Below are positions 1-34,342 of a DNA stretch of 64,000 nucleotides, piece by piece (within the stretch, counting starts at the first letter, position 1; the number at the start of each line of letters is the position of its first letter). Below the pieces are notes generated by a model, which was not told where the DNA came from, made no database searches, and saw nothing but the letters and a program-made list of their open reading frames with translations. This DNA is from Macrostomum lignano (lineage: Eukaryota). The stretch covers positions 1 through 64,000 of the forward strand of contig NIVC01003268.1 in the NCBI GenBank assembly GCA_002269645.1. The letters run 5' to 3'. A program made the position numbers and the translations under genes.

Positions 1-874
1 GGATTGCTGCATGATCCCTTTTAATGCAGATGTTGTTCTAGTTTCGTTTCGCTCATCTCGACACATGTAGGCCGTGTATGCAACATCAATGTCCTTCTCT
101 ATTGCCTTAAGATAGTCGCTTTTAGTGCAGTCTTTGGCTCAATGACTTCCAAATACAGCTCGATTCCGGTTAGCTTCACCCATCCTTGTGGTCCGCCCCA
201 GTCCACAACACTCTACTGCGATCATCTCTAGTCAGTCTAAATGTGTAGCTAAAGTTACTAGTCAGTCGATTAAATGTATTACAGAATCCACTCATGATCT
301 CAATGGTACAAATACATCAACAGACCGATACAGCGGGTTCTTAGCAGCATCATCAGCACCTTGCAATGCATAGTTGTATCTCTTCTTCCTCTTTTTATAG
401 CCACTGTCATTGATGTCTCCTTCTTTTTCATCTGCAATAAAACCCGCACCACTTCCAATGAATAAAATCAGGATTCTCGATCAAACAATGAGCGTCATAG
501 ACAATTCCAAAGTTGGCGATTCGCTCCAACTCAGTGCTCCCATTCGATACACTAAACTCCTTGAACATGTACGCCCAAAAGTTACTGATCAGAGCCACAT
601 CCGCATCATGCTTGTCAACGTTAGCACGAGCCGCATCCGCACCACCTTTTGTCTTGAATTGAAATGTCATATGGAAGCCGCTCTTAAGACTGTGCACACT
701 AACCAAAGACGAACATCCATTGTATGTAAATGTCAGTGTTTGGCCAGGACCAAGATTAGTTTCATTCTGATTTTCCTGACTGGGAACTCTTACCTGAGTC
801 GCTTTGATTGTGCTATCATCACTCAAAATAGGCTTGTTAATTTTGTAGAAAACTGGTGTCAGTGGGTCGTTCAT
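1..874 (-). pseudogene. Polinton double-jelly-roll major capsid protein, N-terminal part, frameshifted, runs off the window
   Basis: ORF 428-874 has ILSDDSTI...GQTLTFTY and ALISNFWAYMFKEFSVSNGSTELERIANFGI, matching the Polinton MCP N-terminus. It continues in other frames as GAGFIADEKEG..SGYKKRKK and VFVPL/SGFCNTFNRL..YTFRLTR. Confidence 0.75.
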
Positions 875-904
875 TTTTTAACTAAAAATAAAATAAAATA
901 AGAA

Positions 905-2118
905 ATGAAGCGAAAAAGTACACAGCAGATATCTGAATTGGAGAAGCTAGCACAAGCAGAGAAACGAGTTACCGGGCTAATAAATAAGGAGCAACAATCC
1001 TACAATGAGTTTGTCCAAGCAGCCACAGAGTTTCATAAACCCGGGTATGGAGAAGCTAAGAAAAATATTGATCAGGTCAAAGAAACTATCGACGACATAC
1101 AGGAAACCCAAGTGCAAAAGGTTTGGGCAAAATTCCAGAAGCACCACAGATACAGCCGCAACCACAGACACAACCGCAACCACAACACACAACAACAATC
1201 AAACACAACAGCAACTAAAAGTGACAGATAACATTTTTGGACCAGTAGAGCGTGTCGAACATGATGGGAAATATGTATTTGGAATAAGTATGTGGAGAAA
1301 ACATTTATAATGAACCAGTGGAATATTATATCGACATAAATAAGGAAAATATTTCTGTTGTCAAAGGCTCGAAACTAAGAATTCCTTTCACAGAAACCTT
1401 ACTGACTTTTATGACCAAGAACCAAGAGAAATCTCGGAAACAGCTAAAGAACTACAGAGATCTAGTGACTTTTTCTCTTGTTAGAGATATAGAAATACTA
1501 AAGGTCCCAGAAGTTGAAACACATGTACGATAGCGGTGTCAACCTGACTAAATTCAAAAAGTACAAGCACTTTAAACAATGGTTCGATTTGCCAGATCAG
1601 GCGGAAGTCATAAAATATCTAGAACAACAACAGCAACCAACCACAACCACAGCAGCAGCAACATTTCACAGAAGTACTCAGGCAACTGGAAAATGCAGAT
1701 CCGACTCAAGTAGCTAAATAAAAATGATCACCCAGATGCCTGGCAACACTTAGAACAACACTCTCCAGATCGAATGAACAGAATCAAGCAAAGAGTTTTC
1801 ACACCTCAACAAAGACAGGCACCACATGACAGTTCCATCTCTGAAAGTGAGCAGTCTTTTGCATCACCTCCCCAGCAGCTACAAGCCCAACCAACTCCAC
1901 AACAACAACACCAACCGCCCTCAACTGGAAAAGGAATTTCTGAAATCTACAAGCGAGTAGCGGTTCTTCTAGGAGCAGCAAAGACCGGAATGAAAGATGA
2001 AAATAGAAAAGAATTTGTCAACATCCTGGACAAAATGATGGAAAAGAAGTATATCGACAAAAGAGGGCAGAGAGCTTCTGCTTTCGCGGTTCAACAAAAA
2101 ATAATTTATTTCAAGTAA
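905..2118 (+). pseudogene. Conserved Polinton protein(s) of unknown function, split by frameshifts
   Basis: Fragments DNIFGPVERVEHDGKYVFG, YIDINKENISVVKGSKLRIPFTETLLTFM..QLKNYRDLV and KRVAVLLGAAKTGMKDENRKEFVNILDKMMEKKYI resemble recurrent animal-Polinton ORFs (recognised by eye). Confidence 0.5.
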
Positions 2119-2142
2119 AATGCCATTATTTTTGAGAAAGAC

Positions 2143-2535
2143 GTGGACAAATACTATGACAAAGAGGAACTTAATCTCATTAAACGCGGATCTGGACTTT
2201 TCCCTGCAGGCCACTATCCAAGAAAAGAACGCTCTGGGAACGGTCTTGCCGATTTGATCGCTCAGGGGGCCAAGATTTTTAAGGTCATTGGAGAGAACAA
2301 AGAGAACATCAAGAACGTTGCCGAAGCGGCTGGCAGTGTAGCCACAGCAGCCAAAAAGATAAAGGATACTGTAACACCTAAACAAGAGATTCAGCCTCCA
2401 CTGGCCCCGCTGGCTCCATTGGCCCCAAATCCAGACAGTGTGGACCCTGCAGTCTATGAGAAGATGAGGGCTAGCATTAAAAAGGAAGTGGTTTCAAATT
2501 TGACTAAAGGGTACTTTCCGAGGGTACAAGACTAG
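2143..2535 (+). CDS. Small putative virion core/membrane-interacting protein with GxG motifs
   Basis: 130-aa ORF with RGSGLF and SGNGLADLIAQGAKIFKVI (candidate protease sites then an amphipathic stretch) and a Pro-rich segment; lies in the capsid/ATPase block. Confidence 0.4.
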   Translation: MDKYYDKEELNLIKRGSGLFPAGHYPRKERSGNGLADLIAQGAKIFKVIGENKENIKNVAEAAGSVATAAKKIKDTVTPKQEIQPPLAPLAPLAPNPDSVDPAVYEKMRASIKKEVVSNLTKGYFPRVQD

Positions 2536-2538
2536 TCC

Positions 2539-2680
2539 AAATGACACATCTAAGTCCCAAAATGACACATCTAAGTCCCGAAATGACACATCTAAGTCCC
2601 GAAATGACACAATTAAGTACCAAAATGACACATCTAAGTCCCAAAATGACACATCTAAGTCCCGAAATGACACATCTAAA
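2539..2680. repeat. 21-bp tandem repeat, about 6.7 copies (AAATGACACATCTAAGTCCCR)
   Basis: Units start at 2539, 2560, 2581, 2602, 2623, 2644 and 2665. Confidence 0.95.
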
Positions 2681-2716
2681 TTATTTATTATTTAATTTTT
2701 TTTCATCATAGAAAAA

Positions 2717-3516
2717 ATGGACTTTTCAAACGACTTCAATCCTCACTGGACGCGTAATCAGATTAAGTTTTCTCATCACGAGTCAATCCGAGTCACTTCA
2801 GATGCATTGTTGTTGGTTCATCAGGTTCAGGTAAAACATTCAGAGTCTTTAACATGCTTCTTAGACCTGGCTTTATCGACTATGACACTCTGCACATCTA
2901 CTCTCCCACACTGTATCAAGATGAGTATAAAATGCTGATTTCTGGATTGCAAAACAAACTGAACAAAGAGGACATTATTGCATGTTTTAATAACCAAATG
3001 AGCCTTCCCAGTAACCCTGAAATTGTAGCTGCTGAATATGCAAAGCACCTCAAAGACAATGAAAAATGGCAGAACATTAAAGTGTTCACCTATGGAGATC
3101 CACAGGCTGATCCAAAGACCAAACTTCTACCCCAACCAGATGAGCTAGAAAAGGGGAGAAAGCATTTGATCGTCTTTGATGATTGTATGACAGGCCCACA
3201 GAAGCAGATAGAAAACTATTTTACAAGAGGGCGACATAACAATTGCAATGTAATTTACATTGCACAGAATTGGTTCGAGCTCCCGAACAAAACAATTCGT
3301 GGGAACTGCAATCTGATTCTCCTGTTTCCAACCATTCCACAGGACAGGCTAAAAAGATTTTACAATGAGGTCATTGCGCCTGCCTATTTCATAAATCCAA
3401 CAAAAAACTCAAGCAGAAAGATTTCACAAGAGGAATTCGTTAATCTTTGCTATGACAAGTGGAATCAGCCTTACCAGTTTGTGATTATCAGCAAAGAAAA
3501 AAGAACTGTAATTTAA
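2717..3516 (+). pseudogene. A32/FtsK-like DNA packaging ATPase, one frameshift near the 5' end
   Basis: Walker A CIVVGSSGSGKT (in frame with ORF 2854-3516), Walker B LIVFDD, arginine-finger motif FTRGRHNN, IYIAQ. ATG 2717 is in another frame. Confidence 0.9.
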
Positions 3517-3532
3517 AATTTGCTATTAAAAG

Positions 3533-4270
3533 ATGTCGATAAACTTTGCAGGTGAATCCATTTCTGGCAACAGCGCTCTTACATCAGCTCAGATATCCAT
3601 CCTTGACAGGCGATATATCAACAGCGACGAAAAGATCCCAGAGATCAAACTGAATAAAAACAGACTGAAAGCCCTAGAGCGCTCCATGCACCAGTTGCAA
3701 ATAAACATGGAAGATCTCAGGCTTAAAGTAGCTAGGCAGAAGTTTGAAAGTGATAAGCTTTATGTGCCGTTGTTAAACGCAACTAATGAACTAAGGTCAG
3801 AAATAACTTCGATAGTCTCGCTAATCAACGGCTTGAGATCATCAGTTAATCTTCTGGGAAATTCCACTGATAGACGGATGCGTATTCTTGAAGGAGGAGT
3901 TTTCACAAACACAGCTAAAGTAAATAATTTAGAAGAGTTCATGAACCAGTCAACAGCGTTGCATGATAGAATTAAAGAAAACGTCGCAACCAACACAGTT
4001 AAAGTCAATAATTTAGAAGAGTTCATGACTCAGTCAACATCGTTGCATGATCGAATCAAAGAAAGACTTGAAGCATTAAAGAGAAAGGATGTATCACACA
4101 GTAGCTATCTAAACGGAATGTATAGCTCTTGGGGTAAAATAATAAGGAGGCTTGATCGTCTGGAGAGAACACTCAATCTTCGTGATATTGCTATTGATGA
4201 AGCAGAATCTGCTGCTCGTCCGGTCATGTCTACAGATCGAGTAGAAGGAGCTCTGGACCCCGCGGAGTAA
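3533..4270 (+). CDS. Coiled-coil protein with an internal 28-aa repeat
   Basis: Intact 245-aa ORF; an 84-bp direct repeat (3908/3992) encodes TNT(A/V)KVNNLEEFM(N/T)QST(A/S)LHDRIKE. Confidence 0.6.
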   Translation: MSINFAGESISGNSALTSAQISILDRRYINSDEKIPEIKLNKNRLKALERSMHQLQINMEDLRLKVARQKFESDKLYVPLLNATNELRSEITSIVSLINGLRSSVNLLGNSTDRRMRILEGGVFTNTAKVNNLEEFMNQSTALHDRIKENVATNTVKVNNLEEFMTQSTSLHDRIKERLEALKRKDVSHSSYLNGMYSSWGKIIRRLDRLERTLNLRDIAIDEAESAARPVMSTDRVEGALDPAE

Positions 4271-4442
4271 TCCGGCACGCTCTCAAACGTCAGCCGCCCA
4301 GCCGCTGCCTGCTGGACTCGCGATCCTCCGGCGTCACGAGAGCCGCCTAGACAACCGGCGGTGCAGATGGAATTATCAAAAAGAAAACAGATCTTTCAAC
4401 CGGATAGTTTTATAATTTTTTTTATTTTTTCTAGAGAAAAAA

Positions 4443-5161
4443 ATGGCCCAACAAAATTCTCTATACGATCAGTCTCAATACGTTGAACCTAAAATACCGA
4501 CAGCACCAAACTCAATGGCACCGAATTCGAACACACAAAACCTGGCACCGAATCTGAATGCACCCTATGAGCAACAAAAACTCTACCCCGTCATTACTTG
4601 TAACTCTCAACAGTTTCGACTGGTGGAGATTCAAAAAATGCGCGATGATCTTGAAAAAAATATTTTCCACAACACAAAGAAAATTAAGCGCTATGACAAC
4701 CACTGTAAATTTTTCGACTACAGCAATATGATTCTAGGATCTGTGTCTGTTCTATCTGGATCTGCTGCAGCTGTCTCAGTGTTGCCAGTCATCACAGCCC
4801 CAATCGCAATCCCGGCTCTGTGGGTGCTGCATGTGGACTTATTTCAGCAATTACTGGAGCATTAGCGCGAAACAGGCGAAAAAAACTAAAGCAGCTACAG
4901 GAGAAGCAAGTAAAAGAGAAAGGGGTGCACACTTCAATCATAGGGTACATTTCAAGGGCAATCGAGGATAAGTTCATTTCAGAGGATGAGTTCAAAACCA
5001 TTCAGGATCTTTATGAACAATCAATTCGAATGAACTTGAACATGGTCGGTACTGATGACATGAGTCAGCTGAAAATGAACTCGAGAAAGTTTTCAACATT
5101 ATGTGGAAAGAAGTCGGCAACGAAGAAATTCGGCAAGAAGGACGACGAGAATGCACAATGA
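4443..5161 (+). pseudogene. Polinton hydrophobic-hairpin membrane protein, one frameshift
   Basis: QQFRLVEIQKMRDDLEK..KKIKRY, a hydrophobic Gly/Ala-rich segment spanning the two ORFs, then ISRAIEDKFISEDEFKTIQ; pattern recurrent in animal Polintons. Confidence 0.55.
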
Positions 5162-5164
5162 ACC

Positions 5165-5566
5165 CTATGAAACACAGCCAAGAATAATTTCCTTGTAGGT
5201 CTTTCGTGTTTTGGTCATTGCATACAAAACAGTCATGCACAGCTCACCGCAAATATCACTGCTAAGACCTTGGAGAATAAAGTCTGAGCGATAAATTTTT
5301 TTATTATTTTTTCCCTTCATATAATTTCTTAGCTCTTCTGGTACTGCCGTCCCATAGCTATCGAAGTAATAACACTTGTGCTTGCGATCGGGATCAATCA
5401 CCCAGCAAACCCAATGAGATCCTGGCTTATCGGTGGTGTCAAAGTTCATGATGCCGCATTCCTTTCTTAGAGGAAAATCAGGCAGAGTGTCCCTCATAAA
5501 TATTCCTCTAAAGTTTGGGATTTCCAGTTCGTTAGCCAAATCTTCAAGAAAGTTATTTGTCGTCAT
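5165..5566 (-). CDS. Adenain-like cysteine protease (virion maturation)
   Basis: Catalytic His (GSHWVCW), Asp (YFDSYG), oxyanion Gln and Cys (QGLSSDICGELC). Confidence 0.92.
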   Translation of the reverse strand: MTTNNFLEDLANELEIPNFRGIFMRDTLPDFPLRKECGIMNFDTTDKPGSHWVCWVIDPDRKHKCYYFDSYGTAVPEELRNYMKGKNNKKIYRSDFILQGLSSDICGELCMTVLYAMTKTRKTYKEIILGCVS

Positions 5567-5650
5567 TTTTTATGAGGTTTATTAAACTTTCTCTTAAACC
5601 TAAACCTCTCCCCTAACCCACCTCAACCTCCTAAACCCAATCTCCTAAAC

Positions 5651-8600
5651 CTAATCTCCAGTGCCCGAACGGTAGACTGTTAATTTGTCATCAAAAATGA
5701 ATCTCTTGTTATCTGCACCTGACAGTCCAATCTTCTTTTGCTGAATTGTGTGAATAATATGGTTTTTAGATTGTAGCTTTGAGAACTCATGTGATGTCTT
5801 TTTGTTGCAATTCAAGGCGTCTCTGTATTCAGCTTCATTAATTTCCTTCCTAACCACACGTTTCGGAATTCCCTTTGATTTTTTAATTGGGTCTGACGAC
5901 TCACATTTTACAAAATAGGACTTTGCTCTCAACCCAATGAATTCAGTGATTATGTCACCAGCAATCTCGTCCTTCATTTTCCCAATCACTTTCTTGTTAG
6001 TGGCGTCAAACACTTGATCGCCATTCTGTGTCCTAAAGATTCATCATACTCAGACAAGTCAAACAAATCTTTTTGCTGCAGCATGTCCTGATAAATGTCT
6101 TCTGTTTGAATGTCCATAATAAAACTGTCTGTGTCAGTGTACAAGAGTTTCATTTTATCCTTGTACTGCTGCTTCATGCCATAGAAGAACTGGTACATCA
6201 GACGTTTTGATTCGTCGAGAACAGTGACACCTGTATAGATCGGCTTGCGCAGCGTCACCTTGGTTTTGTAAAATATGATCACACCTAAGTAGCTATTAAA
6301 GATATGGAGTTCTTTGAATGTTGGCTTTGACATATTTGCCTGAATAACAGCAGGCTCTGATGAGGTAACAAGTTTCAGGTTTGTTCTTTTCCGCTCATTC
6401 TCAAGAGTCTTGCCATAGACAGAGTTGTTGGCCAACTTAAAGAGGTTCTTGTCAAAGTCGTTGGTTGCTTTGGTCCTAAACTGGGTGTTCTTATCAATGT
6501 AGGGTTTCATCCACGCTTCCTCTGTAAATGTAAGAGCCCTGTGAACTTTGGTGACCCTGCAACCAAGTGAGATAAAATACTGAAGCAGTTTGTAATGGAT
6601 TTTGTAACGTGTCTTGTTGTTTAGATTCTGTGTTAGTTTCTCTGTATGTTCTTTTTCTGTTCCTGACAGGTGCCAAGTTCCATTATTATCATTGGGAGTT
6701 TCGATTATTTTCGGGCACTTGATGTTCTCTGGGAAGGGTGGAAAGTCAGAGAAATAGTCGTGAAGCTCTGGTGGAATGTAAACATCAACTCATAAATGGC
6801 AGCCAATGAAAAGTCCCACTTTAATTCTGATGAGGGTAGCCATCGAAAATCTCTAACTGGAAGATCTTGACTCATCGCCCACCCGTAGAGATTATTAGCG
6901 TCCAAGTAAGTAATGTAGTTTGAGGGCTGCTCCTTATTGTAAGATTCAATGTAGGGATTGTTTGCTTTTGCATACCTGTTAACGCAAATTGAGATCCCCC
7001 TCGCTTTGACGATTCGACAAAATTGTACATGTCAATGTCTGTAAGAAGTTCAATGTACCAATCTGGATCTTGATCCCATTTCATTTTAAGCAAAGATTCC
7101 CAGCTAGTGGCAGGCAGAGACACATAATGTGCTGGATCGAGGCCATATGCTGTGTACCAGGTGTATCTGAAGGTTTCAAACACATCAGCCAGCAGAAACA
7201 CATCTGTGAAGAGGTAAAGCAGGTGATACTGGAAGAAGTTTTGACAATTAAAGTAATTATAGACATGCTTCGCGTGCTCATAGTCTTTGTCAGAGATTCC
7301 AGAGTCTGTTAGCTTTGAAAAGAACTTTCCTGTGGTGGTAAACCTTCTTCAAATACGTGATACCCAGTAATATTTTCATAGGGGTAGAAGCCTTTGGTTC
7401 TCAGGAGTTTAAATGATTCATCACTGTTGTAATTTTACTTGCAAACATCTTTGTATATGTACATTGTTCATCTTTTAGATTCTTGCTTAGTTCGTCTAGA
7501 CTGGCAGCTAGAAATTGATATGAATCCTTCAGTCTTATTTACCTGTACCCGAACTTACCCCCGAATTATCCTGTTTAATATCAACACACTTAAACTTCTC
7601 CTTGTTCTCTGCGATGCAGTCAAGGTGTATGTCTGGAATCATGCCGATTTTTTCAACTATTAAATGCATGTCATAGTTCTTTGCGTTGTGACAAAATATC
7701 GTTAGATCATGAATGTTCGATTTTAGCTTTAGATTACAGGTGTTATGCGCTGCACCTCTAAATTTCCCAGTAAAGTGGCAGTGGTCCCTAACGGTGGGGT
7801 TTTTAATATTAGTGCAAGTTAAATGTTTCCTGCAGATGTGGCAATGAGTTGCTGATAGGAAATTGCTTTCATCCTCCTCAGTCATCATTATTGGAACAGG
7901 TTGAAGGGTGCTAATCACTTTTGCAACTCTAACATTCTGGCAATAAACTGCTCCACACACTGCTCTCCAAAGAAATAATTATACTCAACAAGTCCTTTTG
8001 TATTAATAAAGGCATATGCTACTGAATTGGGGACATGTTTTTGAGTTTGAGTTTGTTTTTGTGTTTCCGGCACGATTGAGCATTCGAAATCAGCATATAC
8101 AACAAATGGGAGCTTCTCCATCTTGTGATAGTTCTTAAACCGAGATACTTCTCTTCAGCTGAAGGAAGAGAGCAGTTTGTCGGGTGATCCTCGCATGATA
8201 ATTCATGCTCTGTTAGTTTTTCAAAGCGTTCAGGTCCACTGTAATGCTTAAGGCACAAGCGGCAGATGGCAACAGCCTCGTGATGATTATTCAACTGCTT
8301 GTGAATGAGTCTTGAAAGATCTTTAATCCAAACATAGTGAGCCTCCTCTAGTAAATTACCAATCACTAGAAGATCCACTTCAGTCCGCCTTTTCCCCTCA
8401 GGATCTAAAACGTCTTTGCTACATCTGACCGGTTGAACTTTCTCAGTTTTTTCACTCCACTCAAAGACTGTGATTCTAATTTTGTTATTAAACACCTCTT
8501 CCAGCTTTGGGATCTGAGAGATCGCCAAGCCTCCTTTGTCAAACCTGATTCCCTTCTTTTCGCATTCGATAAGATAGTAGTTGAAATAATTTTGATAATT

Positions 8601-9470
8601 TGAGGTTCTTTCGGGGTGGTGAGGTACACTATCATGAAGAAGTGCAGAAAGAACTGCCCATAGAGCACAGCAATTGTCTTTATTTTTAACATTTATGCAA
8701 GCTTTTTTACCGGCTAGCTTATGCGGGAGCTCTATATAAGAGGAGGCTTTAAGTGGGTCATATTTCATGACCATGACAGTTGCTCTTTGAATCCCTCCCA
8801 CGACCCATCCGGAGCCTCTGGATGTAAACGCTTCAATTTTCTTAGTGACATCTTGAAGGAAAGGATCCAGTGTGTCTGTTGGGGTGAATGGCTTTGCCTT
8901 TGTTGTCATGTAATACTCGAGATGCTCAGTGGGTTTCGCAGGCATATAAAACGCAATCTTGAATGATATCTGTAGTTTAAAGGTCTTGCGTGTTTTGAGT
9001 GTGTGATCAACAACTGATTGGATGCTGTCTTTATAGTCGTAGATGTTTGCGGTGGTGCCGTTTATTGGGATTGTGTACTCTATGTAATGTTCTGTAAACT
9101 TCCTCTGTGCAAAATTAATCTCTTCAATGGCAAGCTCCGACTCTTTTAAATGGATTAATTGCTCTAATTTCTCTTGTTCCTGCTTATTTTGTGGGTACTT
9201 TGCTTTTTCACCAGTGAGAGTTTCGTATTTGTTAACTAAGTTGCGACTCCTCTCTTGGTGTTCCTTTGCAGAATTTTTTATAGGCGCATACTGGTTGGAT
9301 TCTAATTGATTGATGATTTCCAACTGTTTTTCATAGCTTCCCAGGTGACCAGGGTCTGTGTTAAACGTTTGTTTACATGCTTCTCTTAGTGAATTACTTT
9401 TGTCTTGAAATGAGACGCCTTTTGAAAAATATTTGTTGACTAAATCTTTTGCTGGATTAGCTTTTGGCAT
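5651..9470 (-). pseudogene. Protein-primed family B DNA polymerase with an internal endonuclease-VII-like zinc motif, multiply frameshifted
   Basis: Exonuclease VVYADFE, CHIC...VRDHCHFTGKFRGAAHNTCNL, FCHNAKNYD, polymerase motifs DANNLYGWAM, KLANNSVYGK and YTDTDS, IGLRAKSY and KSKGI, spread over 7 ORF fragments. Confidence 0.95.
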
Positions 9471-9663
9471 TTTTTTCTATAAAAGAAAAAAAAATTTTTG
9501 AGGGTGACCACCCTGATAGAAAAGTTGAACTGTTTCTACATCCTATCAGTAGTATTAGGTTTATGAAGCTGGATAAAGTGGGGTTTTAAACCTCATCACA
9601 TGCGCATTATTGTAAACCCAGCATTGTGCAGTGTCATGATGGCTTTGACAATGTCAGACTTGC

Positions 9664-10041
9664 TTACAGAATTTTCATGCTCAAATCATCACGATCGGGG
9701 CAGCCCTCTCCTGCCTTAATTGTTATACCTTTGTCTCTTGCAATCTTTTGCAATTCAAGCTGGTGGGCTCTATCATTACCAGCTTTAACAGCAGTTGCTA
9801 CACCTCCAGCTACACCACCTGCGGCACTCACAGCGCCTGCAATGATCGGAATAAGAGCTGCTAATGGTAGGATTCCTCCTGACTTTTCATCTGTGATGCT
9901 GTGTCTTTGTTCATTACATTGAACTATTTGCTGCACGGGATCGACTTTTACTTTGGCACCTTTTATTGATATAAGACCTGGTCTCTTTGAGTCAATGATT
10001 TTATTGAGTTTATTGATGGTTCTGGTTTCAATCTTTGTCAT
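9664..10041 (-). CDS. Adenovirus pX(mu)-like core protein
   Basis: KSGGILPLAALIPIIAGAVSAAGGVAGGVATAV closely parallels the adenoviral pX C-terminal GG/ILPLLIPLIAAAIGAVPGIASVAL. Confidence 0.7.
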   Translation of the reverse strand: MTKIETRTINKLNKIIDSKRPGLISIKGAKVKVDPVQQIVQCNEQRHSITDEKSGGILPLAALIPIIAGAVSAAGGVAGGVATAVKAGNDRAHQLELQKIARDKGITIKAGEGCPDRDDLSMKIL

Positions 10042-10057
10042 TTTTTATTTTAATATT

Positions 10058-11053
10058 TTAATTAATTTCCGTGTCAGCTGGTATCACTAGGAGTTCAGCT
10101 CTAGTGAATGACCGCGTGGGGGATTTAGGGTTAAAGGTTTGAGATAAAAAGTAATAGTCTCCAGAGTCGGAGGTAAAATGTCTGTCTATTTTATGTACAT
10201 CAAGGCTGAAGTATGGATCTGTAGCTCTTCTTTTGGTGTCTTTCTCTAGCTCTCCAGGTAGATATAAAAAGCGTAGAAACTCAGAGTTTGTCAGTATGTA
10301 TGGTGATTCAACTCCTGGAAGCTTAGGGTAGTTTGAGGTGTCTGTTCTATGAGATGACTTAAGTTCGACAGTGTCTTGTTTAATTGCATGGGACGGTTTC
10401 AATTCAGTCATGCGCGTGACTTCATTGTTCAGTTGCTCTATAACAGTGGGGAGCCGGTCTGTCCACTTGGTATAGTACTGGCCACTTTTTAGTTTCAGCT
10501 CCTCTGCTGTCTGCTTAGTGAATAGCCTCTTGGCTAGAGTTAGATTGAATCTTTCCACAAAAGCCTGGTCTCTGTGGAGCTCAGTTCTTCCATAGCGAAT
10601 TTTTGTGTCATACTTATGTAGAAGTGATATCACTGCACCCATGAATTCTTTACCCGGGTCCGTCATAAAGATTTCAGGGTAACTAAGGGGTGAGTTTTTA
10701 TAAATATCTTGGAGGGCGGCTGCAACTGCTTCTGACTTCTTCGTCTTGAGTGGGCGAGCTTCCTTATATCTGGAAGCAATGTCAATAATTGTAAGAGCAT
10801 ACTTGTAGCCTGAGTCGTTGGGGAGAAACAAAAGATCTGCTTGGTGCGCTTCATTAGGTTTATAGATGCTAAAGTGAGGTCTCGTAAATTGAACAGGTGG
10901 GAAATAGACTTGAAAGACAGCCTGCTTAGAGAGCCACTTTTCTACTTTAGCTTTTGGTTCCTTACTTAGTTCTGCGAGTTTGGTGACTGCATTTTTTCCT
11001 ACAAAGAATCCTTTGTCGCTGTAGTAGAGTTTTTTAAGTTTCTGATCTGTCAT
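10058..11053 (-). CDS. Retroviral-like DDE integrase of Polinton type
   Basis: Intact ORF, likely ATG 11053. Catalytic D (HQADL), D (TDPGKEF), E (AFVERFN); C-terminal KRRATDPYFS...RSFTRAELL. Confidence 0.95.
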   Translation of the reverse strand: MTDQKLKKLYYSDKGFFVGKNAVTKLAELSKEPKAKVEKWLSKQAVFQVYFPPVQFTRPHFSIYKPNEAHQADLLFLPNDSGYKYALTIIDIASRYKEARPLKTKKSEAVAAALQDIYKNSPLSYPEIFMTDPGKEFMGAVISLLHKYDTKIRYGRTELHRDQAFVERFNLTLAKRLFTKQTAEELKLKSGQYYTKWTDRLPTVIEQLNNEVTRMTELKPSHAIKQDTVELKSSHRTDTSNYPKLPGVESPYILTNSEFLRFLYLPGELEKDTKRRATDPYFSLDVHKIDRHFTSDSGDYYFLSQTFNPKSPTRSFTRAELLVIPADTEIN

Positions 11054-11083
11054 TTTTTTAAAAAGAAAATTTAAAATAAAATA

Positions 11084-11554
11084 ATGCAACGCTCTGGTGG
11101 TAAGTTAGATTCACATGGACTGATAGAAAAGCTTCCTCATCCAAACAAAGGCTGGACACTTCCCGGCTATAAATATTGCGGGCCTTTGAATCCACTTGAA
11201 ATACAGTTAGATAAAAACAATAATCCACATCCTGGGCATGAGCCTGTGAACGAGCTAGACTCTGTCTGCATGTGGCACGATGTTAAATATAGAGATTTTC
11301 CTGAGGAGAAGAATCGCTGGGACAAAGAAATGCTTAAGAGACTAGACAATATAGGGGCTTCAAGCGGATTTCGTGAGTCGATTGCTCGGAAGCTAGTTAA
11401 AGCTGTTATTTTTAGTAAGGCAAAGTTGGGTTTGGGGTTCAAGGCGAAGGTGGGTGTTTGGGGAGAGAGGGCGGGTGTGCGGAAAGAGAGGGCGGAGGCT
11501 TGGAAGCAGGGTTTATTTTGTGTGCTCCTAACAAGAAATTGGGAAGACTGCTGA
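11084..11554 (+). CDS. Parvovirus-VP1-type phospholipase A2
   Basis: Ca-loop LPGYKYCGPLN, catalytic HD (CMWHDVKY), second Asp (WDKEML). Confidence 0.88.
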   Translation: MQRSGGKLDSHGLIEKLPHPNKGWTLPGYKYCGPLNPLEIQLDKNNNPHPGHEPVNELDSVCMWHDVKYRDFPEEKNRWDKEMLKRLDNIGASSGFRESIARKLVKAVIFSKAKLGLGFKAKVGVWGERAGVRKERAEAWKQGLFCVLLTRNWEDC

Positions 11555-11710
11555 AAGAGCTGGGGTAGAGAGAGCGCGCGTGGGGGAGAGAGATTTTCAC
11601 TTTAACTGAGCCCAGCCGGGGAAGAATTCCGTCTCGAGTGAAGGCCAGAATGCAAAGGATTTCGGCCTCGCGCGAGGCCAAAATGAAAACGATTTTGGCC
11701 TTTCAGTTTT

Positions 11711-11980
11711 TTAACGCAATTGCTTAATGATTTCTGCAAAGTTATAGTAGCTGTCGTAATCTTTTACATAGGTTACTCCATACTTATGAAACCAGTGTCT
11801 TTGGAGAGCTAGATTAATATTAGGGACATTGATATGAACGTCGGGCCAATATTTTTTCATGTATTCGCTGCATTCAAGTTTGCATCGGTACTTGGATTTG
11901 TACAATGGATGAGGCTGAGTATAATAAGAACCTGGAGAGACAACTGGAAACATTTTTAGAGAAAATTTAGATTTTTTCAA
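11711..11980 (-). CDS. Hypothetical 89-aa protein, accessory block
   Basis: ATG-initiated Tyr/Lys-rich ORF, co-oriented with neighbouring accessory genes; no motif recognised. Confidence 0.35.
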   Translation of the reverse strand: MKKSKFSLKMFPVVSPGSYYTQPHPLYKSKYRCKLECSEYMKKYWPDVHINVPNINLALQRHWFHKYGVTYVKDYDSYYNFAEIIKQLR

Positions 11981-12505
11981 AGGGTAAGGACCCTGCGCTG
12001 ATGCTTTAAAGTCTTAGGGATCTGGTCTCGCGTTGCAAATTGAATGTGGGGAGAAGAATGCAGATTATTTTCTGATTGTCTCGAAGATGCTATGGGTGGA
12101 TTTGGAGCTGTTATGCTCAGAGCATAAACCCTCAGAGCATAACAGTAGGACACCTGTTATGCTCTGATTCTGTCAGAGATAATATGGATGGATTTAATGG
12201 GATTATGGAGGACGTTTTGTGAGCGAGTGCGACCCCCCTTTTTTTCTGATTCTGTCAGGGATAATATGGATGGATTTAATGGGATTATGGAGGACGTGAA
12301 AAATTTTGTCCCAGAAGCCCCCTCATGCCTTCTACTAAAAAAGAACGAACGCGCTTTGATGGCATGGCCAACAAGTAGGGAATTCCCAACTTGTTCCTTG
12401 ATGCTGGTCAAGGAATAATCGAATAATCAAGGGCCAACTGTTTTATTAAATCACATTTCAGATTGTCTTCATGTAGCAATTAAGGCGAGTCAAAACGCGA
12501 GTCAC

Positions 12506-13185
12506 TCAGCCAGAAGGATTAATAATCTTGCAAACTGTGTCCACAACATCCTCAAGAGTAGTCTCTGGCAGCACTCGGATCTTGTGCACAGTTTTGAAAA
12601 GAGCAAACTGTGCATGCAGCTCCTCCCGTAGTTGTTCAAGATAACTCAGTGTAATGTGCTGCTCCCCACCTCGGTTTCGCTGTTGAATGCGCTCCAGTGC
12701 AAGCTCGGGTGTGATGTCCAGATAGATTAGTGTGGCATCAGATTGAAAGCAGTTGGTAAACATTTCATACAACCGAATCATCAGATTCAGTTCAAAGTTA
12801 GTCAACCGATCCTGTTTGTACAACAGATTTGAAAAGGCAATTCCGGATCGTAGGTGTCGGTCCATTACTATCAGATCAATCGGCTGGCGGCCCTCCTTCA
12901 CCTCGTTTGTCGCAAATTGAACTGCGGCCATGTCGCGTCCCATCAGCTCTTGGTACACCAACGTTTGAAAAGCAAATGCTGACAGTTCACCAGAATAAAA
13001 CTTCTCCAGGGCGCCGCAAAAAGGACCCTCGCTGCGGCAAAAATTTGCACCGGCAGAAAATGAGCACGCTTCCTCCAGTTGTCTAGTCTTGATCGTAGTG
13101 CCAAATTATGCAGTACGGTGGATTTGCCCGCTCCCAACAGTCCTTCAAGGATGAAGACGCTCGGTGCAAAAACGATATTTGCCAT
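12506..13185 (-). pseudogene. Deoxynucleoside kinase (dNK family), one frameshift
   Basis: P-loop ILEGLLGAGKST. After a frameshift near 13100 the frame reads ALEKFYSGELSAFAFQTLVY, then IVMDRHLRSGIAF, LIYLDITPELALERIQQRNRGGE (lid) and YLEQLREELH. Confidence 0.88.
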
Positions 13186-13194
13186 TTCAGATTA

Positions 13195-13767
13195 CTAGTT
13201 GTTGGATATAGGATCGATTGACTGCAAGATATTATGCGTTGAATTAGGAATCGAAAGCTTTAAGTATGTTTCAATACATGATAAAATAGAGGAGAGTTCT
13301 TGGGCATTTGCTGGGCCCATTATGACCAGCTTTTTTGAACAAAACAAATTTGCAAACAAACGTTTATTCCAGCTGCAGCGCAATCGCACGGCTTGAGGAA
13401 AAGTTTCTGCATCGTAGCTCACAGTGAAACCAATGAAACATCCAATTCTTAATTTTAGCATAAAAAATCTGTCTGTTGCGCTATAAAATTCATATTCACC
13501 AACATATGTTGAGGTTTGAATACGTATTGAATTAAAATCCAGCTTAAAAACAGAATTGTGAATTGCCAGGAGTGTGGATATTAATTTGAGATTTGATGCA
13601 CATCGAAAAATTGTAATTTTTCCACCAGGATAGATTTGCATAGTATAGCCAGCACTCGTAGCAACTCTCAGCATAGAGGGTCGTCCAAAATAGAGTTTGC
13701 AATTGAATCCGCTTTTTAGCAGTTTTAGCTGAAGCTGAAATAAATCTAGTCCATCGGAACCGCTCAA
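13195..13767 (-). CDS. Divergent TATA-binding-protein (TBP)-fold protein; true 5' end probably near 13865 and frameshifted
   Basis: Two TBP half-repeats: LDL..., TMQIYPGGKITI (cf. ALIFSSGKMVC), IRIQTST (cf. FKIQNMV), VSYDAETFPQAV (cf. SSYEPELFPGL), ANLFCSKKLVIMG (cf. LLIFVSGKVVLTG). Confidence 0.78.
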   Translation of the reverse strand: MSGSDGLDLFQLQLKLLKSGFNCKLYFGRPSMLRVATSAGYTMQIYPGGKITIFRCASNLKLISTLLAIHNSVFKLDFNSIRIQTSTYVGEYEFYSATDRFFMLKLRIGCFIGFTVSYDAETFPQAVRLRCSWNKRLFANLFCSKKLVIMGPANAQELSSILSCIETYLKLSIPNSTHNILQSIDPISNN

Positions 13768-13917
13768 ATCCAGTTGTGCGCTCCCGACACTCTGAACAAT
13801 TCTCTGAAAATTTCAAACCAGAAATAAGTCTGAATAAGTCGTGGTAAGACAAAGAACTTGGTCATCAGTTTATTATAATAATAATAAGTCGGGTAGTTAG
13901 CAAAAGCGCTATTGCAG

Positions 13918-14283
13918 TCAGGCTAAATGTCTCGCGGATAGCAGTAGGTAGGCAGGCGAATTGCTAAAGATAAGCACTAAGGCGAGTAAACCAGCCTTGC
14001 AGTCTAAAAGCCAAGCAGCAGATTGACGAGAAGAAAAGCGATGTAAACGACGTAGAGCATCTAATGAAAATAACAATTTGCGTTTAAAAGGATAGGCTAG
14101 AAAACCCGAGCTATATGCTTTAAAACATGTGAGGAAGTTGAATCCAAGGCGAGCCGATCTATTTAAATGTTTACGAATATTCAGGTGCTCGTCCTTGCTA
14201 CTAAAAATTTGCCAGAAATAGTTAAAGTTTATGATAGTGCGAGACGTCAGACATGCTGAAAAAGTCCCTCGCAGCAATGACAC
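13918..14283 (-). CDS. Hypothetical 121-aa protein, accessory block
   Basis: ATG-initiated ORF tightly packed between neighbours; no motif recognised. Confidence 0.3.
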   Translation of the reverse strand: MSLLRGTFSACLTSRTIINFNYFWQIFSSKDEHLNIRKHLNRSARLGFNFLTCFKAYSSGFLAYPFKRKLLFSLDALRRLHRFSSRQSAAWLLDCKAGLLALVLIFSNSPAYLLLSARHLA

Positions 14284-14293
14284 CAGTTGGAGC

Positions 14294-15473
14294 TTAAGCG
14301 AACAGACTGCAATCCGAATCGGAGGATCTGTTGCTCGAGGCTTCAGCTCCAGCTAGCTGCTTGGCATACGAGAGATCCTTAGAGGCGACTCGCTTTCCCG
14401 GCTGAACCGTAGGCGAACTTACGAGCTTCTTGACTGCCGGTACTTCAGCCCAGTCGGGATCGCTTGCTGGTCCACCTTTGCAAGCAGGCTGGTTCTTAGG
14501 AGCGCTCGCGGCAGGCCTTGGACGTTTCGAATTCTTGCTTGGTGGCGGCGGTGGTGATGAGGTTCTCCTCTTCTTCTTCGGCGTGGTGCTGCTCTCACTT
14601 CGATTCTTGCCGGTGGCAGTGAGAAGACTTGGAGTAGGCAAACTTGAAATTTTCTCCTCGTTGCTGTGTTCATGCACAATCCGATACTCGGACAGAGGTC
14701 CCTGCAGGTTCCCTATCAGGCCGGTAGTGTTTCCATCAGACAGCCACACCAGAGATCGGATGCAGGCGGCAAGTCGCCAGGCTGGTGCCCCCTTCGGAAG
14801 GTAGAGCGAAGTGATTTGCACCGTGATCTGGTAGAGTCCGCTTCGCTCGCTGAAGTCTCGGGCGAAACCTCTTGGATTGTGCGGCTGCCCTCGTTGGTGG
14901 AGAATGTTGTGCATGGATAGTTGGGCTTGATGCCGATCCAGGTAATTGGGTTGGCACCGCTCGCGTCAGGACTCTTAGTGAGTCTAATGAGCCCCATTCG
15001 GTCAGATTGCTGGTGAAGTGCCTTCTCGATCGACTTCTCGATCGCTCTGGAAAGAATATGACAGATAGCAACGTAAGAAAATTGCAGTAAACTTTAATTT
15101 CTAACCTGGGATGCGGTTCACAAACCAAAGAATAGGATTGTATTTACCTCAAAGTTGAAACCAGCTGAGGGCAAATGCCCTTGGCTTGAAAACCAAGTGC
15201 GATAGCTTCTCGTCCTTCGTTGACCGAGTGTTCTGTGCCCGCACCGCTGTCTGTTCGGTGCAAACCGCGAAAGAGTAGAATCGGCTGTTGAGACTGCAGT
15301 AGAATCGGTAGTTTCTCGTGCTTGTCGCCCACCGGAGTCCAAGAGAGAGCGCGGAACTGACAGTTGTTGGCAAACTTGGGCGAAGAAGCTGGCTCGACAT
15401 GGATTGTAGGCCGCGTCTCGGGTGAAACAAACTGCTGTGCGCTTAAGACTTCTTCTTTAGCGAAAAACGCCAT
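14294..15473 (-). pseudogene. Degraded gene of about 390 codons, possibly OB-fold ssDNA-binding protein with a basic NLS-bearing tail
   Basis: ORFs 15144-15473 and 14736-15128 share a frame, separated by one TAA; two further frameshifts link to 14294-14914. Tail contains PKKKRR. Confidence 0.35.
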
Positions 15474-15528
15474 GATGGTCGGTTAGTCTCCCTCGGTCTG
15501 CTCCGGAAGATTCTAAAACACCACTTCC

Positions 15529-15535
15529 TTATATA
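15529..15535 (-). promoter_or_regulatory. Candidate TATA box heading the accessory cassette
   Basis: TATATAA on the minus strand about 55 bp upstream of ATG 15473. Confidence 0.4.
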
Positions 15536-15636
15536 CTGTTTTTTGAAAAGGTTTCCGGATAGTTCACCCAAATCGTCTGAATTCTTTACTTCTCCCGAAA
15601 CGCTTTTAAGCCATATCAAGCTGTAAGTTCAAACAT

Positions 15637-15810
15637 CCTGACCTTTTGATTGAACATTGCGTTCTGGGGCTTGCTTTCCCTGACATTTCGATCTGGAGCG
15701 ATTTGTGGCCAGCTGTTTCACTTAAAAGTTGTCAGTTTTATCTTCCTGACCTTTTGATTGGACATTGTGTTCTGTGGCATGCTTTACCTGGAATTTCGAT
15801 TTGGAACGAT
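15637..15810. repeat. Subterminal imperfect direct repeat (period 108 bp), probably within the right terminal inverted repeat
   Basis: CCTGACCTTTTGATTG(A/G)ACATTG... begins at 15637 and 15745. Confidence 0.8.
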
Positions 15811-16056
15811 TTGGAGGCAATTTATCTTTACGAACAGTTGTTTTAGAAATTTAACAACTAGCGTCGGCGGCGAGGGAAAGAAAAACTGGAGGTCTGCGCT
15901 TTGTGGAAGAGAGGAAAATTGCGCCCCAGTTGCTATCGGGAGAGGGTTGAAAATTTGTCCGAAGTTTCGGCTATCTCCCATGTATATTGCCCATGTACCA
16001 ACCATACATTTTTCGTATTTAAAAAAACCCTCCGTGTCCGATTTTTATCTACTACT

Positions 16057-16310: not shown

Positions 16311-17129
16311 TGTTTATTTTATTTTATTTTATTGTATTTTAGTATAGTTTATTAGTTTAGTTTAGTATAGTATAGTATAGTATAGTTTAATTTAGTTTAG
16401 TTTAGTTTAGTTTAGTTTAGTTTAGTATAGTAATAGTTTAGTTTAGTTTAGTTTAGTTAAGTTAAGTATAGTTTATTTTAGTTTAGTTTAGTTTAGTTTA
16501 GTTTAGTTTAGTTTAGTATACTATAGTTTATTTTATTTTAGTAAGGTATAGTTTAGTTTAGTTTAGTTTAGTATAGTATAGTATAGTTTAGTTTAGTTTA
16601 GTTTAGTTTAGTTTAGTTTAGTTTAGTATAGTTTAGTTTAGTTTAGTTTAGTATACTATAGTTTATTTTATTTTAGTAAGGTATAGTTTAGTTTAGTTTA
16701 GTTTAGTATAGTATAGTATAGTTTAGTTTAGTTTAGTTTAGTATAGTATAGTTTAGTTTAGTTTAGTTTAGTTTAGTTTAGTTTAGTATAGTATAGTTTA
16801 GTTTAGTTTAATTTAGTTTAGTTTAGTTTAGTTTAGTTTAGTTTAGTTTAGTTTAGTTTAGTTTAGTATACTATAGTTTATTTTATTTTAGTAAGGTATA
16901 GTTTAGTTTAGTTTAGTTTAGTATAGTATAGTATAGTTTAGTTTAGTTTAGTTTAGTTTAGTTTAGTTTAGTTTAGTATAGTATAGTTTAGTTTAGTTTA
17001 GTTTAGTTTAGTTTAGTTTAGTTTAGTATAGTATAGTTTAGTTTAGTTTAATTTAGTTTAGTTTAGTTAAGTTTAGTTTAGTTTAGTTTAGTATACTATA
17101 GTTTAGTTTAGTTAAGTTTAGTATAGTAT
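16311..17129. repeat. (TTTAG)n/(TATAG)n pentamer microsatellite with recurring variant blocks
   Basis: Direct inspection; the block GTATACTATAGTTTATTTTATTTTAGTAAGG recurs three times. Confidence 0.97.
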
Positions 17130-17226
17130 TGACTTAAACTTGACTCAGCTGCAGGGCTTTCCCGGGGGGACACAGCGGGAAGGCGCGAGCGCCCATTCCG
17201 CTAATCCCTGAACGGCCGACGCGTCG

Positions 17227-20200
17227 CTATGGACGAAGGGTTGGCGCCGCCCAGGGAGGTCCCCCAGTGTCGCCAGCAGCTATGGTGCTCTTTGGAAAGG
17301 AGAGTTCAGCCCTGCGGGTGGCCCGGAGGTAGCGCATGAGCTGGTTAAAGTTTTCGGGTTTGCACGCTTCAGTAATAGATGTGTGTGGCCCGAGGTAAGT
17401 GAGTCTGGCTCGCGTAAAGGCGGGACAGATGCTGACGAAATGCTCAGCGGTTTCGTCACCTGAGTTACAGAAACTGCAGATGGCGTTGGTGGCGTTGCCC
17501 TGCAGGTACTGGTGCCTAGAGAAGCAGCCGTGACCTGAGAGGGTCATGGTGGTAGCCTGGATGTCTCTGCGTGAGAGGCACAAGAGGAGCTTCCGGAGCT
17601 GGTGAGAGGGTTGAGGGACAGCGCCTCTGGATTGCCTGCAGTTCGTGCGGTTCGCCCAAGTCGAGCGGTGCTGAGTCCTGATCCACGCTTTGATGCGCGA
17701 GTCGATGACACAGCCAGGAATCGGGACAAGGGGTTCGGGACCGAGAGAGGAGCCGGAGGCGCCAACTTTCGCAAGGGCGTCAGCCAACTCATTCCCTCGG
17801 ATCCCCACATGCCCGGAACCCACTTGAGGGTGATTTTGTTGGTGGAGCCCAACATGTTGAGGAGTTTGATACAGTCGAGGACTTTAGCAGAATTGGTGCT
17901 GCAGCCGCTGATGGCGTGCAAGGCAGCTTGGCTGTCCGAATGGAAAGTGATGTTGTTACCGGTAACGCCAGTGGCGAGGAGCTCTGCGGTGCAGGAGCTG
18001 ATGGCAAGAACTTCATTTTGGAAGACACTAGAGTTGACCCCAGTGTACTGAGCTTGGGTTGCGATAACCCTCCCGTTCAGGAAGATTCCAACACCAAAAC
18101 CGGTGTTGTCTGACTGCTTAGAACCATCGGTGTAGCAGTGAAGCTCACCAGGGTTCCAGTGGTCATAGAGAGTATCTCGCGAGTCGATAGCTACGGAGTA
18201 GCGTTGTCTCAGGTTGAGCGTTGAGGCAATGCCATCGGTGAAGACCCGATTGGCCTGACACTCGTTGAGGATGTTGATGCACAGGTCGCTATGCGGGACG
18301 AGGTTCCGCTTAGCAAGTGCCCTCATGTAAAGGAATTTGACACCGGCATAAAGTAAACGCCCGGTCGTTCTAGCCGCCTCACCCCTGACGAAGAGGTCAA
18401 GAGGCGGTAGATTAAGGAAGGCCCCATGCCGGCAAAAGGCGTGGACCTGGTGGCGTTGCAGATAAGCCTACACGCTCTGCCCTGGATCGTGTTGAGCAAA
18501 TCTGCCTGGTTAGCGCTAACCCAGACAACCGAGGCGTACGTCATGGCAGGTCTAACTACGGAAGTGTAGATCCACCAAAGCCGTTTTGGGGATAGACCCC
18601 AAAAAGTGTCAAATGCTCGACGGAGCTGGGCCAGGATGGCTGAGGCACGCTAGGCTTTTGCTTTCACGTGGAAGGACCAGTTGAGCCGGTGGTCAAGTAT
18701 GACCCCGAGACATCTGGTCTGGTGCGCGAAGGCAATATCTCTGCCGTAAAGCTGCAGAGGTCGTATGTTCCAGCGTATTCTGCTGGTGAACATAATGGCA
18801 ACAGTTTTGGGCTCAAAGAGTTCCAGACCGTTGTTATTGGCCCAGGATTCTGCTTCGCGGATAAAGCTCCGCATCAGATCCCTGAGCGTGCTGGAGGACG
18901 GCCCAGCCACAATGGCAGTGACATCGTCAGCATACCCGACTTTGAAGACGGGATCAGGTCAGGAGTCACCCAGAAGAGCGTCCATGACCAGGTTCCAGAG
19001 CGTCGGGGTGAGGACTCCGCCTTGGGGTCCACCCTTACAGACTCTGGCGGAGGCAGTTTGCCCAAGAAGTTGGGCAGTGACCGTACGGTTGGAGATCATG
19101 TACATGATCCACCGTATGAGGGTAGCGTGAGCTTTGCGATTTTGAAGGGCCCTTTGAAACGCTTCAAAGATAACGTTGTCGAAGGCGCCAACAATGTCGA
19201 GAAAAAGAGCCAGGGCGTTACCGTCACCCAGTACCGCCCGTTCAATCTTCTCGACTATCGCATGCAGGGCGCTGTCAGTCGACCTCCCGGTACGGAAGGC
19301 GTGCTGATTATTGCTGAGAGGCATTGCTGTCAGCTCGCAAGAGAGCAGCCGCCAGAGAATAAGCCTCTCAGTGAGCTTAAGCATTGCTGACGTTAAGCTA
19401 ATTGGCCTAAAGGCCTTGACGCTCTGGTAGTCACCCTTCCCAGGTTTGGGAATAAAGACTACCCGAGCTTCAGTCCAGCATTTGGGAACGTATCCCAGCT
19501 GGATAGAGGCCCGCATAAGATTGCGGGTGAGTCTCAGGAACGAGGGTATCTTGGCTGCTTCACGAAGGAGAACAGGGTAGATACCATCAGGTCCAGGAGA
19601 TTTGAAGGGTTTGAAGGTTCTGACCGCACGAGCGATTAGGTCTTCAGTGACAATGCCCGCCGCTAGGGTGGCTCCATCCATCGAATGGTTGGGCTCCGGT
19701 CTAGCAGTAGGTACCCTCGGGAAGAATGTGCTGAGCATATGCTGAAGCACTTCTTCAGGGTCTTTAGTAAGAGAGCCATCATCTTTTTTGATCATGGCTA
19801 ATTTGAACATTTTGTCCATTGTAAGGGCCTTGACAAGCCTGGAAGTAGGTCTGTCTTGATCCAATTCATTGCAGAATTGGCGCCACTTACATTCCTTGGC
19901 CTTGCGCACTTCAGATTTGAAATTGCGGGAGGCTTGCCGGAAAAGCTCCATGTCCTCCGGGTTTCCGGTCTTCATGGCACGGCGGTGAAGGCTTTTGGCC
20001 TTCCGCCTGAGTTTCCCCAGCTCCGGGTTTCATTACGGCGCCGAGGTCTTGCCTTTGTAGGCACGGACAGGGCAGGCCGCCTCATAGGCTGCAATAATGC
20101 AACCTGTCAGCGTCTCAGCCGCATGGTCCACATCCTCGCAGGTCTCAATCGGACGTAAGTCCGTGAGTTCCTGCAGGTGCAGATCAAGGGTAGCCTTATA

Positions 20201-34025: not shown

Positions 34026-34342
34026 GCAACAAAGTTGAGTAACCCAACAACGCATTCTTACGCTCGTGAAACTTTTGTCAAATCGGAGTTTTACTTAATT
34101 GTTTTTTTGAAACAAATTAGCATGTCTATGCAATATGTAAATTCAAAACAATGCTTTCTTAAATGTCTCTAATTGTAACTGTTTTAATTTTATTGACAGA
34201 AACTGAAAACACTTTGCAAGTTTAAACCAAAACCTAAGCCTACTTTAAACCTAATTTATACCTAATTTATTAGAAGCAAACAGTTTTCAACAATAAACTA
34301 CGAGCGTAACAAGAAAAAGTTAGCAACTATTCTACCAATCGA

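Follow-up and report, generated by a model that had tools for sequence, protein, structure and literature searches.

Polintons (Mavericks, adintoviruses) encode capsids and lack an RNA polymerase, and the timing of their structural genes is an open question. Nucleocytoviricota mostly bring their own RNA polymerase. In KSHV, EBV and HCMV, the viral TBP-fold factors ORF24, BcRF1 and UL87, respectively, act on modified TATA boxes at late promoters and use the host Pol II (PMC6541308). For Polintons, Starrett et al. 2021 (PMC8502044) give TBP as a figure-legend label only, for adinto-like elements under non-animal datasets; the passages, section 3.4 and one supplement file of that paper hold no account of TBP spread, splicing or a late box. 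No further Polinton TBP was found in a search of openly accessible article text, and the parts covered of PMC12220804, PMC11131425 (text and one supplement file) and bioRxiv 2026.06.19.733378 contain no TBP passage. The first-pass annotation of the locus, which knew of no such description for Polintons, was nearly right: no discussion was found, and the legend label is what it lacked.

The locus lies in a window of 64,000 nucleotides, by which the whole analysed stretch is meant (positions 1 to 64,000 of the forward strand of contig NIVC01003268.1, Macrostomum lignano, assembly GCA_002269645.1). On balance, it appears probable that the TBP-fold domain of a 17.5-kb Polinton is an alternative last exon of its leftmost early gene and that the fusion protein is a late-gene factor working on a variant TATA box. 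If this is true, a TBP mimic and its matching late box would be the missing switch of Polintons, parallel to herpesvirus late control. The model is directly testable through one junction, one box and one protein.

Two Polintons in the window

The TBP-bearing element A and the element B that supplies the core genes of the window are two different Polintons (Table 1). Only positions 12336–16056 match other copies of A, and they equal the left 3.7 kb of the complete 17.5-kb copies found elsewhere in the genome on contigs C4619 and C1975, which have 191-nt terminal inverted repeats (TIRs). Copies of B elsewhere end at the position equal to window 12336. The second junction of B was found on contig C4948, and both junctions carry the same 6-bp duplication of the uninterrupted sequence of A. 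A single element spanning window 1–16056 was rejected on these grounds, together with the completeness of A elsewhere. The integrase and polymerase of the window, initially taken for those of the TBP gene's own element, belong to B, which is inserted into A, and no TBP-like frame was found in B in the window or in four other B stretches. The right terminus assigned by the first-pass annotation proved to be a real TIR, 95% matched at the far end of complete A copies, yet it is the early-gene end of A and not the right end of the core-gene element. The annotation had also proposed a search for intact copies linked to pPolB and integrase; the complete copies on C4619 and C1975 carry both genes.

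Table 1. Coordinates of elements A and B and of the early gene in the window
Feature	Position	Strand	Remarks
Element B, a different multi-copy Polinton	1..12336	.	integrase, fragmented pPolB, protease, PLA2-like, pX
6-bp target-site duplication of B within A	12337..12342	.	between kinase and pPolB genes
Deoxynucleoside kinase gene of A	12506..13185	-	directly after TBP-like exon
TBP-fold coding exon	13195..13803	-	202 aa and stop; predicted last exon of spliced early gene
Predicted alternative intron 2	13804..14422	-	619 nt; phase-0 donor GTAAG at 14422, phase-0 acceptor at 13804
Exon 2 of early gene (ORF2)	14294..15046	-	window copy has a frame break
Intron 1	15047..15147	-	101 nt, GT..AG; spliced in RNA-like run contigs
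Exon 1 of early gene (ORF1)	15148..15473	-	108 codons; no family match
Canonical TATA box TATATAAG	15528..15535	-	about 60 nt before exon-1 ATG; predicted early promoter
TIR of element A	15866..16056	-	191 nt, begins AGTAGTAG

Past its first 3.7 kb, element A carries genes for a 1426-aa pPolB (PF03175, E 2e-25), dUTPase, ATPase-like, capsid-sized, pX, integrase and protease proteins. The integrase has a chromo domain and an rve match below the cut-off (E 2e-4); the matches of the putative packaging ATPase to Pox_A32 (E 0.004) and of the putative protease to Peptidase_C5 (E 0.03) are weak. Two marks of a Polinton, protein-primed PolB with a retroviral-type integrase and TIRs beginning with AG (C4619, C1975) with a 6-bp duplication (matching flanks on C1975), are present in A. 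The labels capsid, PZ and Z are our presumption from the look and position of the sequences, the capsid one being weakly supported: one of eight relatives was DJR-like at E 0.1, and there was no PDB match. No RNA polymerase subunit was noticed among the open reading frames of A.

The two flanks of the element do not agree on C4619, nor do those of the window and C4948; because the outer flanks of A do not pair between the latter two, the assembly may mix near-identical copies. The kinase of A is split over two frames in the assembled copies, and in another subfamily, on C297 and C362 (L060, L062), the TBP-like exon is fused in frame to the deoxynucleoside kinase, the whole frame being 469–473 aa. 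At C2285:150001-186834 two TBP-like-bearing Polintons adjoin, the first broken by a retroelement-like stretch. Elsewhere in the window, a long array of 23-nt tandem repeats (34200–45600), a simple AT-rich repeat (16320–17000) and open reading frames resembling, by eye, reverse transcriptase and RNase H fragments of a non-LTR retroelement (17200–20000) were observed.

The TBP fold, its predicted DNA contacts and a candidate late box

The TBP-like minus-strand frame occupies 13195–13812 and has 205 aa from stop to stop. Counted from the predicted acceptor (13803) it has 202 aa, and a product begun at the first in-frame ATG (13674, residue 44) would have 159 aa, so the length of 190 aa originally given was wrong. 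The two TBP half-repeats and the motifs IYPGGK, IQT, ETFP and NLFCSKK reported with it are all present in this frame. The ATG at 13865 lies in a different frame, which stops after 33 codons; a programmed -1 frameshift from this ATG was considered and discarded, no canonical slippery heptamer being seen by eye.

Single-sequence searches missed the TBP fold, which was detected by profiles and structure. The window protein alone gave no Pfam match at E ≤ 0.1 and no TBP match by phmmer against PDB. All eight relatives tested matched PF00352, six of them above the Pfam cut-off, and a 14-row family profile gave 36 matches in PDB, the top 35 all being TBP (best E 2.6e-9). The NCBIfam archaeal TBP model aligned over residues 3–182 with E 8.2e-8, far below its curated cut-off. 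The AlphaFold model, for which a family alignment without any cellular TBP was used, reached pLDDT 80.3. Foldseek matched it to TBPs with a best E of 1.3e-8 (TM 0.68/0.76), the first non-TBP following at E 6.8e-4, and VIA-align superposed residues 1–186 on human TBP 164–337 (Z 16.2, rmsd 2.7 over 167 residues) with the first non-TBP match only at Z 8.6. Two pseudo-symmetric repeats form the TBP saddle that defines PF00352. The TBP fold of the window frame is established by the agreement of profile, AlphaFold and Foldseek, and structure prediction, which the first-pass annotation had named as a check, returned what it expected. Since the TBP core begins where the first residue of the exon is aligned, a 159-aa product begun at the ATG would miss a strand, a helix and a second strand.

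The frame is a real, selected TBP-fold domain of a Polinton clade and not a canonical TBP. It does not have the four intercalating Phe of the canonical protein: F135 and F154 are invariant in 14 of 14 family rows, as are E133, Y58 and N152, the second intercalating aromatic being Tyr (Y58) instead of Phe in every row. The first intercalating position is R/K at residue 41 by secondary-structure register and Y38 by profile alignment, with P42 invariant in the 13 family rows that cover it. Of the original claim that three aromatics are retained and the first is replaced, the part on F135, F154 and Y58 stands, and the part on the first position depends on the alignment. The central Asn pair (LQN/IQN) is replaced by Q/L at position 4 and T/S at position 97, and helix 2 of the first repeat is without its basic patch (0–3 K/R in 17 residues vs 6 in 21 in cellular TBP). 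The net charge of the domain stays basic, from +4 to +21. The acidic Glu of the C-terminal stirrup, by which TBP contacts TFIIB, is kept as E133, as a sequence feature only. When TBP is bound to DNA, it is the C-terminal Phe pair that opens the box at its first TA step, whereas its 3' end is opened by the N-terminal pair; by this layout, the kept C-terminal half would face TATA and the changed half the 3' bases. The loss of both central Asn and of one or two Phe could equally mean that DNA binding is lost. Modelling of the domain together with a partial exon of host TFIIB, with no DNA and with the family alignment unused, scored 0.00 and is evidence neither way.

A possible target of the domain is the TATAAG(C/T) box, which first stood out before the minor capsid, pX and PZ genes in a scan of upstream regions. 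On the coding strand of five subfamilies, the late blocks (44.8 kb in all) have 35 copies of it and the early blocks (42.9 kb) have none, as counted in the same five elements in which it was discovered and in subfamilies that share ancestry. The sites are at matching places before the genes of dUTPase, the ATPase block, minor capsid, pX, integrase, PZ and major capsid, some of them overlapping coding constraint, for example at the integrase stop codon. The longer TATAAG(C/T)A is found 4–6 times per element on the coding strand vs 0.4–1.0 expected and never on the reverse strand (six elements). No TATAAG was found within 170 nt of the open reading frames of B in the two copies scanned; the B stretches have 0–5 chance-like TATAAG(C/T)A, two of them 3 and 5. 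TATAAG is also found inside early TATA boxes of other Polintons, and the late TATAAG(C/T) box is lacking from type-2 and most metagenome elements, most of the latter showing no common late box of any kind. In L154, a Polinton from a metagenome that carries PC4 as well as a TBP-like gene, several genes of the morphogenesis block are preceded by TATAAG-type boxes. In coral data, capsid genes cluster apart in expression (PMC11131425, in the parts covered).

The restriction of a TATA variant to late blocks suggests a late-gene activator that would work like the herpesvirus TBP mimics. The idea of the first-pass annotation that the lineage may carry its own promoter-recognition factor is strengthened by this restriction, binding itself being a prediction. 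With both Phe and the stirrup Glu in place, the C-terminal half-repeat would be expected to hold on to the 5' TATA half, and it could also bind the host TFIIB. The remodelled N-terminal half-repeat (Phe to Tyr, Phe to Arg/Lys, the Asn pair and basic helix 2 lost) would match the altered 3' half of the box, TATAAG(C/T)A. The capsid and packaging genes are predicted to be switched on through the variant box, which is found only before that gene block.

Another explanation, which is considered unlikely, accepts the predicted splicing and makes the domain a decoy or adaptor for TFIIB, for NC2 or Mot1-type regulators or for replication intermediates, with TATAAG(C/T)A read by host TBP. It agrees with the heavy change of the DNA-contact residues, and host TBP may read the late box because there are crystal structures, by the titles of their entries, of wild-type TBP on TATA boxes with the single changes G(-26) and C(-25), host-type TBP thus tolerating single variants of such kind. 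Against it speak the basic net charge and the fact that each of the 14 rows keeps the stirrup Glu and both C-terminal Phe, as does the box itself, which is confined to the late blocks of TBP-like-bearing elements and absent before B genes.

Predicted structure and products of the early gene

According to the late-factor model, the early gene would be started by host TBP and Pol II at the canonical TATA box; TATA-like boxes are present upstream of ORF1 in five of five subfamilies examined. Intron 1 is spliced in contigs of three probable RNA runs from three studies (the C4619 copy serving as reference) and not spliced in a DNA-like run, and its phase is the same in six of six subfamilies. The RNA status of these runs comes from a tool's guess and the splice joint, none being on record as RNA.

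The TBP-like frame, presented at first as a free-standing gene, is very likely an exon. A pyrimidine-rich YAG acceptor in phase 0 immediately precedes the start of homology in all 13 loci. No in-frame ATG lies upstream of the acceptor in 11 of the 13, and one subfamily has a stop codon formed by the acceptor. The first 43 codons before the ATG are constrained (pN 0.25 vs pS 0.60). The pyrimidine tract of the acceptor ranks first or second among 211–267 YAG sites in five of six subfamilies; that of the window subfamily is the weakest, 19 of 185 YAG sites being as pyrimidine-rich. The missing start is not an assembly slip, because the run contigs show no difference in length there. They do differ in length from the assembled copy at L032:901, 3077 and 3880, and some frame breaks of the assembly may therefore be errors.

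A matching donor is found in ORF2: each of nine elements, from six subfamilies, has a single phase-0 GTRAG there, and its place in the K-x-L|V-S motif does not vary. Elsewhere, Val-Ser pairs are coded as GTRAG in 30 of 100 cases; independence would give about 7e-4 for the observed constancy, but the subfamilies are related. Synonymous sites between subfamilies are mostly saturated, against the kept donor. Since the frame opens at a phase-0 acceptor and a phase-0 donor is kept upstream of it in six of six diverged subfamilies, the TBP-like frame is likely an alternative last exon of the early gene, and the signals make a spliced fusion of the two a good probability. The intron-2 junction was not seen in the contigs of the three probable RNA runs, and the contigs of two cross donor and acceptor unspliced; the runs were assessed as assembled contigs, which drop rare forms but give the one direct view of this junction.

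A start supplied in some other way, by a trans-spliced leader ending in AUG, a non-AUG start or another upstream exon, would give a stand-alone mini-TBP and no fusion. Trans-splicing of leaders is known in some invertebrates, and a phase-0 acceptor fits any such start. Despite an in-frame ATG 11 codons upstream in one subfamily, related Polinton TBP-like genes that are free-standing with their own ATG, and AATAAA between ORF2 and the acceptor in two of six subfamilies, this appears quite improbable: it leaves the phase-0 donor conserved in six of six subfamilies unexplained, and no loose end was found at the acceptor in the run contigs.

Returning to the spliced fusion, the ORF2 exon has an ordered N-terminal half followed by a basic low-complexity linker, and its unspliced form has an acidic Ser-rich tail; acidic tails are present in the unspliced ORF2 of six of six subfamilies. 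The upstream exons gave no Pfam match, and an Atlas search with exon 1 gave sub-threshold matches only. The AlphaFold model of exon 2 was poor (pLDDT 47.7, best Z 2.6) and matched no fold. In the Atlas, ORF2 scored 0.90–0.94 to viral clusters, only 10–29% of whose members carry DUF2738/DUF5871. DUF2738 is taken here to be a T7-type SSB. By the Atlas scores, the acidic tails and this link, the upstream exons may encode an ssDNA-binding fold. T7-type SSBs are known in eukaryotic DNA viruses, as stated in the parts covered of PMC4889955 and PMC10962738. The unspliced form would give a short protein with a putative ssDNA-binding fold, and use of the conserved internal donor would swap its acidic tail for the TBP saddle. 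More speculatively, the N-terminal domain might tether the factor to replicating genomes and so couple late transcription to replication.

Pyrimidine-AG acceptor-like sites were also observed just before the ATG of the kinase and pPolB in several type-1 elements, and pPolB frames without a nearby ATG in two. Alternative splicing may thus join the whole early block into a single unit. Polinton gene sets are possibly under-annotated, since annotation passes over spliced exons that have no ATG.

Conservation, spread and comparison with known systems

Six of six candidate regions were near-identical DNA copies of the TBP-like region, and a protein search of the genome with the frame gave 67 matches in several subfamilies. 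The mapped elements share the gene order ORF1-ORF2-TBP-like-(kinase)-pPolB, except that ORF1 was not detected in C297. In 40 of 40 own-genome loci examined, many of them copies of one subfamily, the upstream gene, kinase or pPolB lies beside the TBP-like frame. A Polinton lineage thus has the TBP-fold gene as a constant member of its gene set. The exon is under purifying selection, with a dN/dS of 0.15 between two subfamilies; most other inter-subfamily pairs are saturated, and a few give about 0.3. A subfamily represented by C724, C753 and about 25 similar matches keeps the TBP-like exon, the donor and the late boxes; it is likely non-autonomous, as the kinase is absent and most of pPolB is missing.

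In a 54-row tree, whose cellular labels are our reading of the sequences and whose branches are long, the window protein groups with P0001/P0002 (100/99) in a clade supported at 100/100. This clade joins other R-P type proteins (94/96), away from host TBP. The phylogeny suggested at first pass thus places the protein with other Polinton-linked TBP-like proteins; the type-2 branch is placed differently in the quick and the careful tree. Capture of a host gene that now decays as a passenger is hardly credible and already largely refuted: stops or frame breaks in several copies and the lack of a Pfam match for the window protein alone would suit it, but the dN/dS of 0.15, the same position in all elements examined and the distance from host TBP in the tree do not. 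Host TBP is found on C70, C713 and C1301 and a gene that we assume to be TRF2-like on C350, C3090 and C3513, three copies each, with host TFIIB-like exons on C469, C4505 and C5174.

A second Polinton lineage of the same genome has a free-standing TBP-like gene that starts at its own ATG and is convergent with pPolB, and PC4 lies near one end of the element; its loci were noted on C414, C96, C130, C100, C201, C1940 and C1545 (L084-L098, L110-L117, L176-L183). A PF00352 scan of the genome gave at least 150 scored matches among those listed of 330 candidates, most apparently of the second-lineage kind. Among cluster representatives, the family profile found 225 proteins at E ≤ 0.001 and a sub-family profile 214; hardly any of the clusters looked up had a name. 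Of 47 TBP-like metagenome loci, 31 have one or more Polinton core genes and 23 have two or more; among the 17 contigs of at least 4 kb, 15 have a core gene. In L154 and L157, PC4 directly precedes the TBP-like gene. It is also close to that gene in L160, where no core gene was seen. IMG/VR scans with queries A1 or A5 found no relative; query A3 gave three loci, of which L119 is a canonical-type TBP in a larger virus.

It is tentatively suggested, as a doubtful generalisation, that many Polintons run an early-to-late programme with their own TBP-fold factor and an ssDNA-binding module. In the present clade, alternative splicing of one early gene would yield either a replication SSB or an SSB-TBP fusion, of which the fusion would read the private TATAAG(C/T)A box and couple capsid expression to replication, and other lineages would achieve this via a separate PC4 gene.

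Element A resembles the described Polintons, Mavericks and adintoviruses in its TIRs, 6-bp duplication, pPolB, integrase, protease, pX, ATPase-like and capsid-sized genes (PMC8502044, in the parts covered). With cellular TBP/TRF (PF00352) the domain shares the stirrup Glu, both C-terminal Phe and a two-repeat saddle, which can be superposed along the entire core. It differs in an identity of about 20%, in the remodelled first repeat with its R/K-P motif, the replaced central Asn pair and the lost basic helix 2, and in that its gene belongs to a mobile element and its product is probably a fusion with a viral domain. The TBP homologues of Nucleocytoviricota give structural matches in BFVD (best E 1.3e-9), whereas identity is 7–18% among matches at E ≤ 0.001. 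The beta/gamma-herpesvirus TBP mimics read TATT, bind Pol II directly and belong to a six-member viral complex; the candidate box of the Polinton domain is TATAAG(C/T), and no herpesvirus-type complex partners were identified here. The likeness meant is one of the way of working. In this sense, and going by the parts of PMC6541308 covered here, they are the closest working analogue of the Polinton late-factor model.
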